A stretch of 64,000 nucleotides of DNA. Source: an uncultured Pelagibacteraceae bacterium. Its GTDB lineage: Bacteria; Pseudomonadota; Alphaproteobacteria; Pelagibacterales; Pelagibacteraceae. The position numbers and the translations under genes were made by a program. The notes beneath the pieces are model-generated. The model was not told where the DNA came from and did not search any database. It saw only the letters and a list, made by a program, of their open reading frames with translations. The DNA lies in NCBI GenBank assembly GCA_902613545.1, contig CACMHW010000005.1, positions 1,685 through 65,684 on the forward strand, read 5' to 3'. Within the stretch, counting starts at the first letter, position 1, and each line of letters opens with the position of its first letter. Below are positions 21,555 to 35,889 of this stretch, piece by piece.

Positions 21555-21818
21555 GTGACTTATTTCGTTTATATGCTCAAATCAAAGGGCAAGAAAACTA
21601 TAACATATGTTGGTTATACTAATAATTTAAAAAGACGAATAGATCTTCATAATAATAGTAAAGGGGCAAAATTTACAAGAGGGCGAAAGTGGATATTAAT
21701 TTACAAAGAAGTATATAGGACTAAAAAAGAGGCAATTTCTAGGGAATATTATATAAAGAAGAATAAAAGTCTTAGAAACAAAATTAAAAATGAAAATAGC
21801 AATATTATTACCGTTTAA
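21555..21818 (+). CDS. Small GIY-YIG nuclease family protein
   Basis: YFVYML...TYVGYTNNLKRR...HN..KGAKFTRGR...A.SRE. Confidence 0.9.
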   Translation: MTYFVYMLKSKGKKTITYVGYTNNLKRRIDLHNNSKGAKFTRGRKWILIYKEVYRTKKEAISREYYIKKNKSLRNKIKNENSNIITV

Positions 21819-23916
21819 AGATACTTATACAAAAGATAAAGCGGGATCAGCATCCATATGGGTAAAAGACTTTATAAAAAAGTCAAAATACAAGAGCAAA
21901 ATATTTATATATGGATATATCAAAAATTTAAACAAAAAAAATCTTATTAATCAAACAAATTATATTAATATAAAATATAATTTTGATTTTTACCTTGGAA
22001 GTAAAAATAAAAAATACGTTGAAATATTTAACAAACTAATCAAAGATAAAAAAATTAATTTAGTAGAGCTTCACAATAGACCTAATTATATTGATCATTT
22101 AGACAAGAATTTAAAAAAGATTTTAATTTTTCATAATGACCCCTTAAATCTAAGTGGATCTGAAACAATTAAAGAAAGAAAAAAAATTATTGATAATTGT
22201 GAAAAAGTTTTATTTGTTAGTAATTGGGTTAAACAAAGATTTTTTGAAGGGTTTAAAATTAAAAACGATAACAAATGTGAAGTAATTTATCCAAGTATAA
22301 ATAAGTTAAAAAACTTCCCAAAAAAAGAAAACATAATTATTTTCGTTGGAAAATTAAATAAATCTAAAGGATTTCATTTATTTGGCTCTGCTATAAAACG
22401 AATTCTTAATGAGTTTAAAAACTGGAAATCAATTGTAATTGGAGATGAGCCTAGAGAAAAATATAATTTTAAACATAAAAATTTAACTTTGCTGGGTTGG
22501 ATAAATCACGACAAAACTTTAAAATATTATGAAAAATCAAAAATAGCAGTAAGTCCGTCTACATGGGAAGAGCCTTTTGGAAGAACTTCAATGGAAGCTG
22601 GCTCTAGAGGATGTGCAACAATCATATCAAATAGGGGAGGAATAACTGAAACAAATTTAAATTCTATAATATTAAAAAAACTTACTTCTTTAGAAATTTA
22701 TAAAAATATAAAATATTTAATTAAAAACAAAAAAAAAACTCTTAAAATTCAAAAGGATTCTTTTAAAAATGTTATTCATGAATTAGGAAAAAATTCACGA
22801 AAAATTGATCAAATTAGAGATGAAATTTTAAATAATTTTAATTTTAACGTAAATAGAAATAGGAAATTAAAAATTATTCATATATCAAATTTTGGACAAA
22901 GACAGGCTAATAGGCTGTATAATATTTCAATAGCAAAAAAATTAACAAACGGTCTTATTAGAAATGGTCATGATGTTATTAATATTAGCGACAGAGATGT
23001 TGTAAGATTAAATAGAGGTTTAAAGAACTTTAATAAGGGCTCTGATTATTTAAATAATTTGCTTTTAGAAACAATTGATAATTATAAGCCTGATGCAATG
23101 GTACTAGGTCATGTTAACAATATTCAAGAGAAAACTTTAGAAATTGCTAAGAATAAATATAAAAATTTAAAGATAACCCAATGGTTTGAGGATAATCTTT
23201 CTAAAAATGGTCCTGATCCAGTAACAAATAAAAAAAATTTCTTAAAATATATAGATTATTTAGACCATAGTTTTGTCACTTCAGATCCAAAAAATTTAAA
23301 ACTTGATAAGAAATATTCCTGCAGTTATTTACCTATTCCAGTAGATGAAAATATTGAATATTTAAAATGCTATCAAAATAAAAACCCAATAAAAGATCTA
23401 TTTTTTACAATGAGTCATGGAGTTAATAAGGGTGTTCTTCGAAAAAATAAAATAGATATAAGAGAACCTTTTGTAAAAAAACTGATTTCATTAAATTCAG
23501 ATATTATTTTTGATATTTACGGCTATAAAAACCAGCAGCCTATATGGTCACATGATTTTTATAACGCACTATATAAATCCAAGATGGCTTTAAACTTAAG
23601 CAGAATCAACAATGTAAAATATTACTCAAGTAATAGAATTGCTTCATTAATTGGTAATGGTATTCTAACGTTCGTTGATATAAATACAAAATTAAACGAT
23701 TTTTTTGACAACGATGAGGTTGTCTTTTATAAAAATATAAAAGATTTATCAGAAAAAATTAATTTTTATAAAGATAATACAAACAAAAGATTAAAAATTG
23801 CCAAAAATGGTAAAGAAAAATATTTCAGAATTTTTAACAACAAAATTGTAGCAGATTATATTTGCTCGAGACTTTTCCAAAGAAATATTAAAAAGAAGCT
23901 TTCTTGGATGAAATAA
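21790..23916 (+). CDS. Two-module glycosyltransferase (GT4-like plus CgeB/GT-B-like module)
   Basis: ELHNRP, PSTWEEPFGRTSMEA; second module with LNLSR...YSSNRI. Confidence 0.85.
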   Translation: MKIAILLPFKDTYTKDKAGSASIWVKDFIKKSKYKSKIFIYGYIKNLNKKNLINQTNYINIKYNFDFYLGSKNKKYVEIFNKLIKDKKINLVELHNRPNYIDHLDKNLKKILIFHNDPLNLSGSETIKERKKIIDNCEKVLFVSNWVKQRFFEGFKIKNDNKCEVIYPSINKLKNFPKKENIIIFVGKLNKSKGFHLFGSAIKRILNEFKNWKSIVIGDEPREKYNFKHKNLTLLGWINHDKTLKYYEKSKIAVSPSTWEEPFGRTSMEAGSRGCATIISNRGGITETNLNSIILKKLTSLEIYKNIKYLIKNKKKTLKIQKDSFKNVIHELGKNSRKIDQIRDEILNNFNFNVNRNRKLKIIHISNFGQRQANRLYNISIAKKLTNGLIRNGHDVINISDRDVVRLNRGLKNFNKGSDYLNNLLLETIDNYKPDAMVLGHVNNIQEKTLEIAKNKYKNLKITQWFEDNLSKNGPDPVTNKKNFLKYIDYLDHSFVTSDPKNLKLDKKYSCSYLPIPVDENIEYLKCYQNKNPIKDLFFTMSHGVNKGVLRKNKIDIREPFVKKLISLNSDIIFDIYGYKNQQPIWSHDFYNALYKSKMALNLSRINNVKYYSSNRIASLIGNGILTFVDINTKLNDFFDNDEVVFYKNIKDLSEKINFYKDNTNKRLKIAKNGKEKYFRIFNNKIVADYICSRLFQRNIKKKLSWMK

Positions 23917-23920
23917 AATT

Positions 23921-24826
23921 ATGAAATTTTCTATAGTTATTCCAACTTTTAATAATCTGGAATATTTAAAGTTATGTATTAAAAGTATTAGAAAAAATTC
24001 TTTATTCGAGCACGATATTATCATCCATAATAATGGTGATGTAGAGCCTGATAAATCTTATCTAGAAAGAAATAAATGTATTTATTCTAAGACAAATTAC
24101 AATGCTGGTATTTGCGAAGGTGTAAATAAAGGGGCCGAGAAAGCATCTACAAACTATATAGTTTATGCTCACGATGATTTTTATTTTCTACCAGGATGGG
24201 ATATTGCTTGGAAAAAAGAAATTGAAAAATTAAACCATAATTTATTTTATTTATCCGGCACAATGGTTCAAAACGGACAAGTTAATTTTGATTGTGGTGA
24301 AAATATTAGTGATTTTGATGAAGATAAATTGCTTAAAAATAATGATAAAATAAAATATTTTGATTTTCAGGGTTCAACTTGGGCTCCGCATATTGTTCAT
24401 AAAGAAACTTGGAATAAAGTAGGTGGTTTCAGTGAAGAGTTTTTTCCTGGAACTGGGTCGGATCCTGATCTTAACATGAAACTTTGGAATGCTGGTGTAA
24501 GAATATTTAAAGGAGTTGGTAATTGTAAAGTTTATCATTTTGGCTCTATAGTTACTCGTAAAAAATTCAAAAAAGATAAAAATGTGATTACTGAGTCAGG
24601 TAGTAAGGGTGGTAAGATTTTTTTAAAAAAATGGGGTTTTTCTATTAAATTTTTTACAAAATATTACTTACGTGGCTGCAAAACTACAAAATTTAAAAAA
24701 ATTATTTGCAATAAATATGATGGACCACTTAAGGAACCTAACAAAAACCTTAGCTATTATATAAGTTTACTCATAGATAAGACAAAAAGATTATTAATAT
24801 CTGATGAAATTTTTAAAAATAAGTAA
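23921..24826 (+). CDS. Glycosyltransferase family 2
   Basis: SIVIPTFN, AHDD, VGGFSEEF, SDPD. Confidence 0.88.
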   Translation: MKFSIVIPTFNNLEYLKLCIKSIRKNSLFEHDIIIHNNGDVEPDKSYLERNKCIYSKTNYNAGICEGVNKGAEKASTNYIVYAHDDFYFLPGWDIAWKKEIEKLNHNLFYLSGTMVQNGQVNFDCGENISDFDEDKLLKNNDKIKYFDFQGSTWAPHIVHKETWNKVGGFSEEFFPGTGSDPDLNMKLWNAGVRIFKGVGNCKVYHFGSIVTRKKFKKDKNVITESGSKGGKIFLKKWGFSIKFFTKYYLRGCKTTKFKKIICNKYDGPLKEPNKNLSYYISLLIDKTKRLLISDEIFKNK

Positions 24827-25825
24827 ATGAAAAAAAAATATATATTAGTTACGGGCGGTTTAGGATACATAGGGTCTAATACAATAGCAATCTTAAAAAA
24901 AAATAAATTTGATATTATTATATTAGATAATTTATCGAATTCTAGCAAAACAAGCTTAAGAAATTTAAGAAAAATAATTAATAAAAAGATAATATTTATT
25001 AAAGCTGATGTAAGAAGTAAAAAAATAAACAAAATATTTCAAAAATATAAAATATATTCAGTAATACACTTTGCTGGTTTAAAATCAGTGAAAGAGTCTG
25101 AAAAAAGAAAAAAAGAATATTATGATAATAATATAAATGGGACTAAGAATTTGCTTAATTGTATGGTTAGAAATGGATGTTATAAGATAATTTTTAGCTC
25201 ATCTGCATGTGTATATAATGAAAAATCAAAATCACCTTTAAACGAAAACACTAGTTTAAGACCTAAAAGTTATTATGGTGTTACTAAATTAAAAATTGAA
25301 AAAATTTTAAAAGGTTACAAGAAAAAATATCCAAGATTTAGTTGTATCATTTTAAGATACTTTAACCCTGTTGGAGCTGACAAGACTAATACTCTAAGAG
25401 ATAATCCTAAAAAAGCTGAGAATATTATTCCTAACATATCTAATGTAATTAAAGGAAAAAAACGGATATTTAATATATTTGGAAATAATTATCCAACAAA
25501 AGATGGCACATGTATGAGGGACTATATCCACATTATAGATTTAGCTTCAAGTCATGTAAAATCATTGTCTATAATCAAAAAAAATATTTTCGAAATTATA
25601 AATGTTGGAACTGGAATACCTTATTCCGTAAAAGATATGATAAATTGTTTTAATAAATACCTAAATAAACCAATTACATATAATTTTTCAAAAAGGAGAG
25701 TGGGGGACGTAGCCATATGTTATTCTAATATAAAAAAACAGCGTAAAATATTACATTTTAGACCGAAATATGGGCTGGATGAGATGGTTAAATCCGTTAT
25801 TAAAAGCTTAAATATTAAATCTTAA
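24827..25825 (+). CDS. galE: UDP-glucose 4-epimerase
   Basis: TGGLGYIGS, HFAGLKSV, YGVTK, LRYFNPVGA, DGTCMRDYIH. Confidence 0.9.
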   Translation: MKKKYILVTGGLGYIGSNTIAILKKNKFDIIILDNLSNSSKTSLRNLRKIINKKIIFIKADVRSKKINKIFQKYKIYSVIHFAGLKSVKESEKRKKEYYDNNINGTKNLLNCMVRNGCYKIIFSSSACVYNEKSKSPLNENTSLRPKSYYGVTKLKIEKILKGYKKKYPRFSCIILRYFNPVGADKTNTLRDNPKKAENIIPNISNVIKGKKRIFNIFGNNYPTKDGTCMRDYIHIIDLASSHVKSLSIIKKNIFEIINVGTGIPYSVKDMINCFNKYLNKPITYNFSKRRVGDVAICYSNIKKQRKILHFRPKYGLDEMVKSVIKSLNIKS

Positions 25826-26526
25826 TGAAAAAATTAATACGAAATATTTATAATTTATTATCTATTTCAACTCCTTATTTTATAATCTTTAACTATATAA
25901 AAAATTATTTTCCAAACTATAGGAAAAAAAAGCAATGTTTAAAAAAAGATAAAGAAATTTATCAAAATTTTAAATCAGTAGATATTACTAAAAAATGGTT
26001 CACAAATAATCTTTACTTTTTATCTAAAAATCTCTCAACATTAAAAGTGAAAAGCTTACTAGAAATTGGTTCCTACGAAGGGCGAAGTGCTATTTTTTTT
26101 GCTGATATTTTTAAGGGTACAAAAATATCATGTGTTGATACTTGGTCAGGTAGTGATGAACACGAAAATATTAATTTTAAATCAATAGAAGATAACTTTG
26201 ACCAAAATATTAAACTTTTAAAAAATAATCAATTACTCACAAAATTTAAAATGACATCAGATAATTTTTTTACTCAAAATAATGAAAAGTTTGATTTTGT
26301 TTATGTTGATGGAGATCATTCAAAAGATCAAGTTCTCAAAGATTTACAAAATTCTTGGTCTGTTTTAAATAATAATGGATTTCTTTTAGTTGATGATTAT
26401 ATGTGGTGGTATTATAAAAATTTAGAAAATAATCCTGCATCATCAGTAAATATTTTTATAAATAAAAATATCGACCAAATATCAAAGTTAGTAATTTGGC
26501 ATCAAGTTTTAATTCAGAAAAAGTAG
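25825..26526 (+). CDS. Class I SAM-dependent methyltransferase
   Basis: LEIGSYEGRS, VDTW, YVDGDH, VDDY. Confidence 0.85.
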   Translation: MKKLIRNIYNLLSISTPYFIIFNYIKNYFPNYRKKKQCLKKDKEIYQNFKSVDITKKWFTNNLYFLSKNLSTLKVKSLLEIGSYEGRSAIFFADIFKGTKISCVDTWSGSDEHENINFKSIEDNFDQNIKLLKNNQLLTKFKMTSDNFFTQNNEKFDFVYVDGDHSKDQVLKDLQNSWSVLNNNGFLLVDDYMWWYYKNLENNPASSVNIFINKNIDQISKLVIWHQVLIQKK

Positions 26527-27441
26527 TTATTTATTTGAAATTTTATTTAATGCGTTATTTTTAAACAAATCAGCTTCTTTGATATATCTTCGCACCATAT
26601 CTACTGATTTATGGCCAGTCATAGCCATGATGTTTCTTTCACTAGCTCCATACTCAGCTGTTGTTGTAGCAAAACCTGATCTAAGGCTGTGACCAGCGTA
26701 TTTTTTTTCATCCAAACCTGCACTTAGGGCATGTTTCTTAATTATTAAAGCTACATTCTTATCTGATATTGGAAAAACTAAATCATCTTTATTCTCAATC
26801 ATCCAATTTTTAAGATGATCAACTGGACAATATTCTACATATTTAAAAGAGGGGATTGCTTTAGTCATTCCCTCTCCAGATTGATCTGATTTTGATTTTT
26901 TAACAAATATTTTTACTCCCTCGTTAACAAATTCGACATCATCTTTACTAATGGCTACAAGCTCTGATCTTCTAAATCCTCCTGAGAAGCCTACTAGAAT
27001 TAAGCATTTGTCTCTTAATTTTTTGAATTCACTCTCATTAGAATCATTAATTACTTTAATAATTTTTTTTAAATCATTGAATAATAAAGGTTTTTTTGCT
27101 TTTTGATGTACGCCTATTTGTCTTTTTATGCCTAGTAAATTTTCAACAATTATTGGATGTTTAGTATCTAAATAATGACCTTTATATCTATGCATGACAT
27201 TTATAGACGCTAAACGTCTTTTTAAGGTACTGTACTTAGATTGTTTTGATAGATGAGTTAAATAAAGGGAGACTATTTTTGGATCTGTGGGCATACTTTT
27301 CATCCCATGTTTTGAGCAAAATAATACAAAGTCATTAAAATCAGATTTATAAGCTCGAATAGTATTCTTAGCTTTTGAGAGCTTTAGATTGTCTAAAGTT
27401 TCAATTTCCAGTTTTTTAATTTCAGTTGTTAAATCATTCAT
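26527..27441 (-). CDS. Cre-like tyrosine site-specific recombinase
   Basis: Intact catalytic set R (GFRRSE), K (KSKSD), HxxR (GHSLRSG), H (TGHKS), Y (VRRYI); N-terminal NT.RAY..D...F core-binding domain. Confidence 0.92.
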   Translation of the reverse strand: MNDLTTEIKKLEIETLDNLKLSKAKNTIRAYKSDFNDFVLFCSKHGMKSMPTDPKIVSLYLTHLSKQSKYSTLKRRLASINVMHRYKGHYLDTKHPIIVENLLGIKRQIGVHQKAKKPLLFNDLKKIIKVINDSNESEFKKLRDKCLILVGFSGGFRRSELVAISKDDVEFVNEGVKIFVKKSKSDQSGEGMTKAIPSFKYVEYCPVDHLKNWMIENKDDLVFPISDKNVALIIKKHALSAGLDEKKYAGHSLRSGFATTTAEYGASERNIMAMTGHKSVDMVRRYIKEADLFKNNALNKISNK

Positions 27442-27442
27442 A

Positions 27443-27471
27443 ATTTCCGATAACCATTAATTATCGGAAAT
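27443..27471. other. Putative recombination site (loxP/dif-like): 11-bp inverted arms, 7-bp spacer
   Basis: ATTTCCGATAA-CCATTAA-TTATCGGAAAT, perfect inverted arms one base from the recombinase ATG. Confidence 0.8.
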
Positions 27472-27491
27472 AATATATTAAGTGATTTTAG

Positions 27492-27683
27492 ATGTCAATA
27501 CGTATAATTTTAAAGATCATGATTAAATTTATTCTTCCTATAGCATTATTTATTGCAGCCGTTTATGGAATTTCATATTTCTGGACAAACTCGAGTCCAA
27601 AAGGCAAAAAAACGATTGCTCTAGGCTTAATAATAGCCCTTATAATAGGCATATCTCTAACAATTTTCTTAATATTTGACTAA
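27492..27683 (+). CDS. Small two-TM membrane protein
   Basis: Two hydrophobic helices; coupled to the next gene; start could be the internal ATG at 27519. Confidence 0.6.
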   Translation: MSIRIILKIMIKFILPIALFIAAVYGISYFWTNSSPKGKKTIALGLIIALIIGISLTIFLIFD

Positions 27684-27958
27684 TGAAATTAGTAGGAACT
27701 AAATTTCAGCTAAAAGTATGGACTTATTTGAGTAAAATACCTCGTGGAAGGGTAAAAACGTACTCACAAGTGGCAAAAGCAATAGGAAAACCGCTTGCTG
27801 TGCGTGCTGTAGCCAATGCTATAGGAAAAAACCCCTATGCACCCAAAATACCTTGCCATAGAGTGATTAGATCTGATGGATCGCTTGGTGGCTATTCAGG
27901 CAAAGGAGGAGTTAAAACTAAGAGATTTTTGCTTCAAAAGGAGGGTATAACGCTCTAG
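27683..27958 (+). CDS. Methylated-DNA-protein-cysteine methyltransferase, catalytic domain only (Ogt/MGMT family)
   Basis: FQLKVW...IPRG..KTY...AVRAVANA...IPCHRV...GGYSG. Confidence 0.9.
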   Translation: MKLVGTKFQLKVWTYLSKIPRGRVKTYSQVAKAIGKPLAVRAVANAIGKNPYAPKIPCHRVIRSDGSLGGYSGKGGVKTKRFLLQKEGITL

Positions 27959-34358: not shown

Positions 34359-35889
34359 TTTCTATTTTTTTAAAAAGTATTTCTAAATTTTTTAATTCTT
34401 TATCATGATTTAGAACATCTTTATTAATAATACTTTTAATTGATATATCATCTATTGATAAATTCATTGAAGTTAATACTTTTCCAGTGGCAATAGGGAT
34501 TATTGGATTTAATAAGATAGATAAATTTTTTATTTGTTCTAAAATTGTAAATAAAATACTTTTCATTCGTTCTGGGTCTTTTTTTTTAACACTCCATGGT
34601 TCTGAGTCGTTAAAATATTTGTTTGCGTCGAAAGAATACCCGACAACTGCTTTTATATATTCATTCAGATTTTGTTTGTTCATTGCTTCAATAAGATTTT
34701 TAATATTTCCTTTCAAATCGTTAAGAAGTTTTTCATCTTTTGAATCAAGTTTATTTGCTTTAGGAATTTTATTATCACAGTTTTTTTTTACGAAAGTGAA
34801 GACCCTTTGACATAAATTTCCAAAATTATTTGCCAAATCATTGTTGATACAATTTTTTAAATTTTCCAAAGAGATACTTCCATCATTTCCTAGAGAAACT
34901 TCTTTAACTAAATAATATCTGAGTTGATCAATTCCATATTTATTTATAATTTCAATCGGATCTAAAATATTTCCCAAAGATTTAGACATTTTTTTTTGAT
35001 CGGATAAAATCCAACCATGTCCAAAAACTCTTTTTGGTAAAGGCAGATTTGCAGCAAGTAAAAAAGCTGGCCAATAGATTGCATGGAATCTTAATATATC
35101 TTTTCCAATTATGTGAACGTCAGCTGGCCAAAACATCTTATATTTTTTGTCGTTTGTATCTGGAAAATTTAGTGCACTTATATAATTTGTTAAAGCATCA
35201 AGCCACACATATATTATATGTTTTTTATTATTAGGAACAGATATTCCCCATGAAAAGGATGTTCTACTTATAGAGAGATCTTTGAGACCTTTTTCAACAA
35301 AATTTATTACTTCATTTTTTCTTGAAACAGGAAGTATAAATTCTTTATTATTTTTGTAGTGCTCTAAAAGTTTTTTAGTCCATGACGATAATCTAAAAAA
35401 ATATGACTCTTCTTCCACCCACTCTACTAATGATCCTGAGATTTTTGAAATTTTTTTACCTTCTTTTACCTCAATCTCATCTTCATCATAAAAGGCCTCA
35501 TCAGAAACTGAATACCAACCACTGTATTTATCTAAATAAATGTCACCTGATTTAACCAATTTTTTCCATAATTCATTAACAGATTTAGAATGTCTTTTTT
35601 CTGAAGTTCTAATGAAATCATCATTTGATAAATTTAAAATTTTAGTTAATGATCTAAATTTATCTGACAATTCATCACAAAATATTTTAGGATCTTTGTT
35701 GTTTTTTTCTGCTTCTTTTTGAATTTTTTGACCATGTTCATCTGTGCCAGTCAAAAATAGAACATTATAGCCTTCTATTCTTTTAAAACGTGCAAAAATA
35801 TCAGCAATAATACTTGAGTATGCATGTCCCATATGTGGTTTACCTGATGGGTAATAAATTGGAGTAGTAATATAAAAATTTTTATTCAT
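34348..35889 (-). CDS. metG: Methionine--tRNA ligase (short form)
   Basis: ITTPIYY, HMGH, GTDEHG, KMSKS. Confidence 0.97.
   Translation of the reverse strand: MNKNFYITTPIYYPSGKPHMGHAYSSIIADIFARFKRIEGYNVLFLTGTDEHGQKIQKEAEKNNKDPKIFCDELSDKFRSLTKILNLSNDDFIRTSEKRHSKSVNELWKKLVKSGDIYLDKYSGWYSVSDEAFYDEDEIEVKEGKKISKISGSLVEWVEEESYFFRLSSWTKKLLEHYKNNKEFILPVSRKNEVINFVEKGLKDLSISRTSFSWGISVPNNKKHIIYVWLDALTNYISALNFPDTNDKKYKMFWPADVHIIGKDILRFHAIYWPAFLLAANLPLPKRVFGHGWILSDQKKMSKSLGNILDPIEIINKYGIDQLRYYLVKEVSLGNDGSISLENLKNCINNDLANNFGNLCQRVFTFVKKNCDNKIPKANKLDSKDEKLLNDLKGNIKNLIEAMNKQNLNEYIKAVVGYSFDANKYFNDSEPWSVKKKDPERMKSILFTILEQIKNLSILLNPIIPIATGKVLTSMNLSIDDISIKSIINKDVLNHDKELKNLEILFKKIENDN

Follow-up and report, generated by a model that had tools for sequence, protein, structure and literature searches.

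Bacteria of the family Pelagibacteraceae (SAR11) most probably resolve their chromosome dimers with a domesticated single-enzyme system, in which one Cre-like tyrosine recombinase would act at one palindromic site adjacent to its own gene; judging from sequence data, we assign this reading a probability of about 0.85. The gene with its intact catalytic residues, the single site, its position, and a distribution complementary to that of XerC/XerD were observed directly. The window is the whole stretch of DNA analyzed, 64,000 nucleotides in length; the coordinates of the module are given in Table 1.

Table 1. Features of the recombinase module and of the skew profile in the window
Feature	Position	Strand	Remarks
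Tyrosine recombinase gene	26527..27441	-	304 aa, Cre-like fold, catalytic set R157, K184, H251, R254, H277, Y286
Peak of window cumulative GC skew	26552		0.9 kb from site
Predicted recombination site (dif analogue)	27443..27471		11-bp arm, 7-bp asymmetric spacer, 11-bp arm
Gene-proximal arm	27443..27453	+
Asymmetric 7-bp spacer	27454..27460		kept in 37/41 type-1 loci; would set recombination direction
Promoter-proximal arm	27461..27471	-
Predicted -10 hexamer, recombinase promoter	27470..27475	-	overlaps outer 2 bp of arm
Predicted -35 hexamer, recombinase promoter	27493..27498	-

The recombinase

The 304-aa open reading frame carries the Pfam domains Phage_integrase and Phage_int_SAM_1, and the gene is the sole PF00589 match of the source assembly (85% complete). 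The initial annotation had described an intact tyrosine recombinase with Cre-like motifs, and the motifs GFSGGFRRSEL, KSKSDQ, CPV, and GHSLRSGF are indeed found, with the catalytic residues conserved: R157, K184, H251, R254, and Y286 are invariant across 37 aligned relatives, and H277 is nearly so. In the alignment with Cre, the five invariant residues pair with Arg, Lys, His, Arg, and Tyr at the positions that we take to be catalytic in Cre, and H277 aligns with Trp.

The predicted structure of the enzyme (pLDDT 93) retrieves Cre or a Cre variant at every listed rank through 29 in Foldseek. VIA-align yields Z 22.9 for Cre (rmsd 3.7, 286 aligned), a higher score than for XerH (Z 19.4, rmsd 3.7, 268 aligned), and Z 13.1 for XerD. 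By both methods Cre is the best structural match, as the Cre-like label had implied, at a sequence identity of 20%. The model consists of a core-binding and a catalytic domain and has no arm-binding domain, which is the composition of the Cre fold; a Cre-like fold in a model, taken alone, does not establish function.

The profiles of Xer families score the enzyme low: 76.3 bits for XerC (cut-off 329.6), 72.8 bits for XerD (cut-off 335.15), 42.9 bits for XerS (NF003462, cut-off 267), and far under the cut-off for XerA as well. XerH is absent among the 22 PDB sequence matches of the recombinase at E<=0.001. In the homologue search, all of the 120 matches listed are at least 88% identical, and they carry no information on the origin of the gene.

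The palindromic site and its two types

A palindrome of the form 11-7-11, with identical arms and an asymmetric spacer, had been noted one base from the ATG of the recombinase gene, and it is located exactly there. Perfect inverted repeats of 11 bp with a gap of 3-10 bp make up 52 rows, some nested, in the 0.99-Mb assembly, and such repeats arise by chance or as terminators; since 11-bp inverted repeats alone are not rare, the case for the site rests on conservation and position. The same arms as in the window precede the gene in 41/41 type-1 loci, whose proteins are as low as 57% in identity. The initial search had seen no second copy of the site, and this extends to the source assembly, where the next-best score on the site matrix is only 8.0 bits, compared to 40.8 bits for the site itself.

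Two types of the site occur in the family. Type 1 is the perfect palindrome, as in the window; type 2 is a longer, imperfect palindrome with fixed mismatches between the arms; both share the five innermost bases of the arms and, in most cases, the spacer. The identical arms behind the initial argument for one recombinase are thus a feature of type 1 only, and 29/40 near-complete genomes have type 2. A bare 5-bp core pattern proved useless as a test for the site, with 6-11 chance matches per genome.

Both types are found inside single genera, namely g8 (4 and 27) and g12 (1 and 3). They are split by a 12-residue segment of the enzyme, missing from 41/41 type-1 and present in 30/30 type-2 SAR11 enzymes. 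As a determinant of arm specificity, this segment is ruled out, because non-SAR11 enzymes beside type-1 arms also have it. The presence of both site types, with their respective enzyme forms, in the same genera suggests exchange of the whole module between lineages.

A sigma-70-type promoter is predicted upstream of the gene by consensus match (11/12 positions) rather than by mapping, and ends within the outer arm; promoter-like sites in general are no commoner than in shuffles (7 vs. 8.5). By eye, TTGAC is seen at the -35 spacing in every upstream row listed for Pelagibacteraceae. As the site covers the predicted transcription start, the bound enzyme would repress its own gene.

Position on the chromosome

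The skew switch had been expected to map at the site, and in four genomes the skew peaks lie 0.9-2.9 kb from it. In addition to the window (Table 1), these are the whole 1.107-Mb chromosome of G045, with the GC-skew peak 0.9 kb from the site and the gene-orientation peak in the same place; 400 kb of G094 (2.9 kb); and 240 kb of G012 (2.1 kb). For oligomers of G045 selected outside the middle third, the peak is 4 kb away. We also recounted the convergent gene orientation claimed for the window: among open reading frames of at least 100 aa, 21/26 on the left are on the plus strand, and 25/32 on the right are on the minus strand, the same proportions as before. The skew at fourfold sites changes sign with the gene strand, that is, GC skew in SAR11 largely tracks gene orientation; hence, the two count as a single line of evidence.

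The distance from the site to hemE, which we take to be an origin marker, is 46.5-49.9% of the circle in 27/28 single-contig genomes. This count leaves out three g12 genomes, excluded after a divergent hemE was seen ~5% from the site; here, the site is at 42-45% of the circle from dnaA. The dnaA-to-site distance is at least 40% of the circle in 30/31 genomes. The outlier is G087, whose site (G087:C1:662141-662171) is separated from hemE by 9% and from dnaA by 14% of the circle; other integrase genes are located between this site and hemE. The motif GGGNAGGG, presumably KOPS-like, has nine matches in G045, seven of them in the expected orientation, which are too few for a test.

Distribution in Pelagibacteraceae

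The gene is present in 155/201 family genomes (a tally that takes in the unpublished genome G068) and in 16/19 genera; among the genomes at least 90% complete, it is present in 66/73, the other 7/73 having no match. Six of the listed gene matches contain internal stops. Sites were counted in 40 near-complete genomes of one or two contigs; as these genomes were chosen from gene matches, presence of the gene in them is by construction. Exactly one site is found in each of the 40, with 11 sites of type 1 and 29 of type 2 (G060 was included in the type-2 count as well); since the pattern derives from the same genomes, single copy, not presence, is what this count tests. The fractions 66/73 and 40/40 agree with the initial view of a core, single-copy module, as opposed to a patchy one. 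Matrix scans detected no second site in G000, the whole of G045, and 400 kb of G094, where the best other scores are 8-11 bits vs. 41-45 bits for the sites; on the whole chromosome of G045, the site scores 41.0 bits and the next match 10.8 bits.

Absence of xerC and xerD, proposed initially as a check, is also observed, as no XerC/D-level gene is found in 231 family genomes. With the XerD profile at E<=1e-40, 0/231 family genomes match; in the sister family of the same order, 20/20 genomes match, 18 of them twice, and all these matches are just under or below the curated cut-off. With the recombinase-family profile, only xerC/xerD matched in 5/5 sister-family genomes tested, with scores of at most 64 bits. 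In 24/40 near-complete genomes, PF00589 matches nothing but the gene, and the top PF00589 score across the 40 is 94 bits vs. 157-158 bits for the XerC/XerD pair. The family counts are not independent, because the genomes are kin. The motor and gamma domains of FtsK are encoded in the source assembly.

P. ubique is listed without dif/Xer in the accessible part of PMC2731167. The accessible part of a 2026 preprint (10.64898/2026.10.07.757358) gives "XerC and XerD" as common recombinases of 15 Arctic Pelagibacterales genomes, based on automatic annotation; these labels are not borne out by the profile search.

Synteny of the module across SAR11, another initial expectation, does not hold: the neighbor genes vary, the nearest ones belonging to 18 upstream and 24 downstream families over 71 loci. 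The tRNA closest to the gene is 3.1 kb off. Cell-surface genes are usually found downstream of the recombinase gene in relatives. In the window, a cell-surface glycosylation cluster (21790-26526, plus strand; glycosyltransferase-like genes, a sugar epimerase-like gene, and a methyltransferase) stops at the recombinase stop codon, and differs among relatives. A 91-aa gene (27683-27958, plus strand) comprises only the C-terminal domain of O6-methylguanine methyltransferases, and such a gene adjoins the module in 24/71 loci.

The same arms in other bacteria

For the R. etli enzyme IntA, recombination has been reported at a 23-bp site composed of two 8-bp arms and a 7-bp center (PMC4928290, accessible text). 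The inner 8 bp of each window arm are identical to the arms of this att site, and this match is the nearest experimental support for the arms as a recombinase substrate. Initially called lox-like, the SAR11 site is rather IntA-att-like, with identical arms and a 7-bp center. The p42a att site, located on the plasmid ~100 bp upstream of intA, reaches 22 bits with the type-1 matrix of SAR11, against a genome background of 8-11 bits. IntA and the SAR11 enzyme are 24% identical over 243 aa (E 1e-16), and in a quick tree IntA forms a long branch outside the SAR11 clade.

A scan for exact type-1 sites, run on eight of the 64 parts into which the genome collection is divided, produced at least 120 sites (~960 estimated) in Pelagibacteraceae, Veillonellales, Selenomonadales, rhizobia, Pseudonocardiaceae, and others; a related recombinase is found in the locus by profile match for 67 of the 120 sites listed. 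In rhizobia, the type-1 site is att, the site of R. etli IntA. Actinosynnema and Saccharothrix also carry the palindrome (G203:C1:4472768-4472790, locus L256; also L252, L268, and L270). In the Actinosynnema genome G203, the single site is at 48% of the chromosome and 41 kb from the related gene, and both XerC and XerD are present; skew in Actinosynnema is too weak to place the site.

Out of 121 genomes of Negativicutes, 62 have a related enzyme, 34-39% identical to that of SAR11; 76 have an XerD-level match; and 48 carry the type-1 site with at most one mismatch (e.g., G201:C1:1744425-1744447, locus L236). In genomes with no XerD-level match, the enzyme is found in 36/45 and the site in 32/45, while 9/45 have no enzyme; with one match, the enzyme is found in 20/22 and the site in 9/22 (e.g., G208, G210, G214, and G216); with two matches, the enzyme is found in 6/54 and the site in 7/54. 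A possible explanation for the combination of one XerD-level gene with a Cre-like gene would be an intermediate stage of replacement.

Megasphaera hexanoica, a member of the class Negativicutes, has no XerD and a single site. Within an 80-kb stretch, the skew peaks 0.9 kb from this site; the dnaA antipode is 30 kb and the related gene 164 kb away from it. Skew samples are positive in 10/10 cases from dnaA to the site and negative in 8/10 on the other side. Dialister fits only coarsely, its fine skew profile being ambiguous. The palindrome and the related enzyme likely represent a candidate second dimer-resolution system of this recombinase family, in Negativicutes. In quick trees, the SAR11 (99) and Negativicutes (100) enzymes form separate clades, whose sisterhood is neither supported nor rejected (p-AU 0.47); hence, one domestication is not distinguished from two.

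Literature searches, covering main texts and few subscription papers, yielded no account of either the SAR11 or the Negativicutes system. By word look-ups, Pelagibacter and Veillonella are not mentioned in the main texts of PMC3025954 and PMC8138268.

Copies of the site in phages

The site scan of IMG/VR gave at least 120 type-1 loci (~170 estimated) and 32 type-2 loci, not dereplicated. Among 80 type-1 viral loci with long flanks, 44 are low-GC and have no recombinase nearby; for these and 31 low-GC type-2 loci, no recombinase is found within 2.5-3 kb of the site. The terL gene starts 240-1170 bp downstream of the site in 40/44 type-1 and 188-1087 bp downstream in 28/31 type-2 loci, with the terL queries drawn from the same viral loci. 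The spacer has at most two mismatches to that of the host in 38/44 type-1 loci, compared to 8% expected at random. Tailed phage loci with the SAR11-type site upstream of terL include L077, L103, L152, L468, L475, and others; in 17/74 low-GC viral loci, both site types are present, 28-40 bp apart. One site-linked terL is 77-84% identical to terL of HTVC010P-type pelagiphages.

We scanned ten records of named pelagiphages, two of them whole and eight only near terL. The sole clear site is that of HTVC035P (35829-35863, 33.1 bits), whose annotation lists no integrase. HTVC034P, Skadi-5, Lederberg, and HTVC100P have degenerate palindromes of 10-13 bits, near background; HTVC010P, Greip, HTVC028P, HTVC203P, and HTVC106P have site scores of 6 bits or less. 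Subgroup I of HTVC010P-type phages is described as strictly lytic, without integrase, in the accessible text of PMC8477408.

A peptide-pattern search of IMG/VR proteins, which detects close relatives only, confirmed no relative of the recombinase among 142 stretches; more distant relatives adjoin 15 of the 120 viral sites listed. No integrated copy flanked by two sites is seen in 41 host genomes. Contigs of four public runs contain no joint at the site, a weak test that does not mean absence; similarly, the one RNA run has no coverage of the recombinase gene, which is not evidence of its absence. From the viral loci we infer that the host enzyme may act for the phages on phage DNA, in circularization or multimer resolution; integration and titration are possible alternatives for the role of the phage site.

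Seven viral contigs (L097, L101, L110, L119, L123, L132, and L142; 33-52% GC) have the palindrome with Veillonella/Selenomonas-like spacers, and several of these sites are near a contig end. These contigs are possibly prophages integrated at the Negativicutes site.

Proposed mechanism and alternative explanations

In the proposed mechanism, two recombinase monomers would bind the two arms of the site, and a dimeric chromosome arising after replication would have two such sites in direct repeat. FtsK, whose gamma domain is present, likely promotes a simple synapsis of the sites, as reported for loxP/Cre at dif in E. coli; a recombinase tetramer would then recombine them via a Holliday junction into two monomer chromosomes, with the same chemistry as in Cre and IntA. 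The enzyme sitting on the site would also hold down its own expression, autorepression being a by-product. The module likely originated in a mobile lineage of the IntA/Cre type and took the place of XerCD; in many Negativicutes, XerCD likely gave way to a related enzyme that shares the arms. A broader scenario, which we consider tentatively and at somewhat less than even odds, is that a Cre/IntA-type family with one conserved arm supplanted XerCD as the dimer resolver of two or more distant lineages (Pelagibacteraceae and many Negativicutes), that the SAR11 module exists in two site types across the same genera, and that tailed phages, by carrying one or both types next to their packaging genes, borrow the host enzyme to circularize or resolve the phage genome. 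Such a strategy would resemble that of P1 with its lox site, but with no cre on the phage, and may drive switching of the host site.

The overlap of the site with the predicted -10 hexamer and the gene start in all SAR11 loci listed would be expected if the palindrome were only an autorepression operator, with the enzyme acting elsewhere or having another job and the terminus position being incidental; the att site of IntA is also ~100 bp upstream of its own gene. We regard this as very unlikely. No other target-like site is found in the two genomes scanned, the distribution is complementary to that of XerC/D in two lineages, and the same arms are reported as a recombination substrate (PMC4928290, accessible text). 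Moreover, in Megasphaera it is the site, not the gene, that marks the skew switch, and a role as an operator only fails to explain the M. hexanoica site, because it is located at this switch, 164 kb from the gene.

The single copy of the site in 40/40 genomes bears also on the suggestion of a resident integrase with an attachment site, building the adjacent variable cell-surface island by cassette insertion, as integration duplicates the site; no degenerate second copy above 11 bits is found in G000, G045, and 400 kb of G094. This makes an island builder very unlikely, although variable glycosyl- and methyltransferase genes, as seen from translated neighbors, follow the recombinase gene in most loci, the reported role of IntA is replicon cointegration (accessible part of PMC4928290), and phages bear the site. 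Finally, the palindrome might form an RNA hairpin in the 5' leader controlling translation of the gene, and in the transcript it would indeed constitute almost the whole leader. However, the core arms are invariant, without compensatory change in 41 type-1 loci, the type-2 arms retain fixed mismatches, in Megasphaera the same sequence is remote from the gene, and no recombinase lies within 3 kb of the copies in phages, so that an RNA hairpin is extremely unlikely.

Comparison with known systems

Read as a dimer-resolution system, the SAR11 module resembles several described ones. IntA-attA/attD of R. etli CFN42 plasmids p42a and p42d similarly has one tyrosine recombinase, the same 8-bp arms, and a 7-bp center (PMC4928290, accessible text), with the att site upstream of its own gene; however, IntA is plasmid-borne, 382 aa long, and cointegrates plasmids, whereas in SAR11 a core chromosomal gene is paired with one site at the terminus. 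XerS/difSL of streptococci and lactococci and XerH/difH of Helicobacter and Campylobacter are also single recombinases with a linked terminus site and no XerC/D (accessible parts of PMC1914069 and PMC2731167). Unlike them, the SAR11 enzyme is outside the XerS sequence family (42.9 bits vs. 267) and is closer by structure to Cre than to XerH, and the SAR11 center is 7 bp rather than the difH hexanucleotide (PMC2731167). In the accessible text of PMC5357621, the single-enzyme systems named are limited to XerS, XerH, and archaeal XerA.

Cre/loxP of phage P1 provides the best structural match to the enzyme, and in its site, too, symmetric arms flank an asymmetric spacer. The loxP site is 34 bp, with 13-bp arms around 8 bp (13-8-13), whereas the SAR11 site is 11-7-11 and unrelated in sequence; the enzymes are only 20% identical, and that of SAR11 has His for the Cre Trp. 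The SAR11 module is natural and chromosomal, while Cre/loxP is phage-borne or engineered. Cre-loxP can stand in for XerCD-dif at E. coli ter, in an FtsK-dependent manner (PMC2680272, accessible text).

With XerC/XerD-dif, the module has in common the inferred job, a single site at the terminus (with the exception of G087), and the presence of FtsK; the differences are one enzyme instead of two, the 7-bp center, and the identical arms, as dif is 28 bp long with two different 11-bp arms around 6 bp (PMC2731167, accessible text). The phage copies of the site are reminiscent of IMEX (CTXphi, VGJphi, TLCphi, and the gonococcal island), mobile DNA with a copy of the host resolution site (accessible part of PMC5357621), but the carriers of the SAR11-type site are tailed dsDNA phages, many of them in a group that is strictly lytic according to PMC8477408, and the site is located by packaging genes.

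Implications

If the dimer-resolution reading is correct, it would fill a stated gap, given that P. ubique is listed without dif/Xer (PMC2731167, accessible part). The module would be a natural counterpart of the engineered E. coli strain with dif::loxP and Cre, and a new instance of dimer resolution arising from recombinases of mobile elements. Since the site matches that of IntA, E. coli would allow a direct test with a defined substrate of 29 bp. The site would provide a terminus landmark for SAR11 and Veillonellales genomes and may be a landing site for genetics in both; its copies in phages would hint at the use of a host recombinase by one of the ocean's most abundant phage groups.
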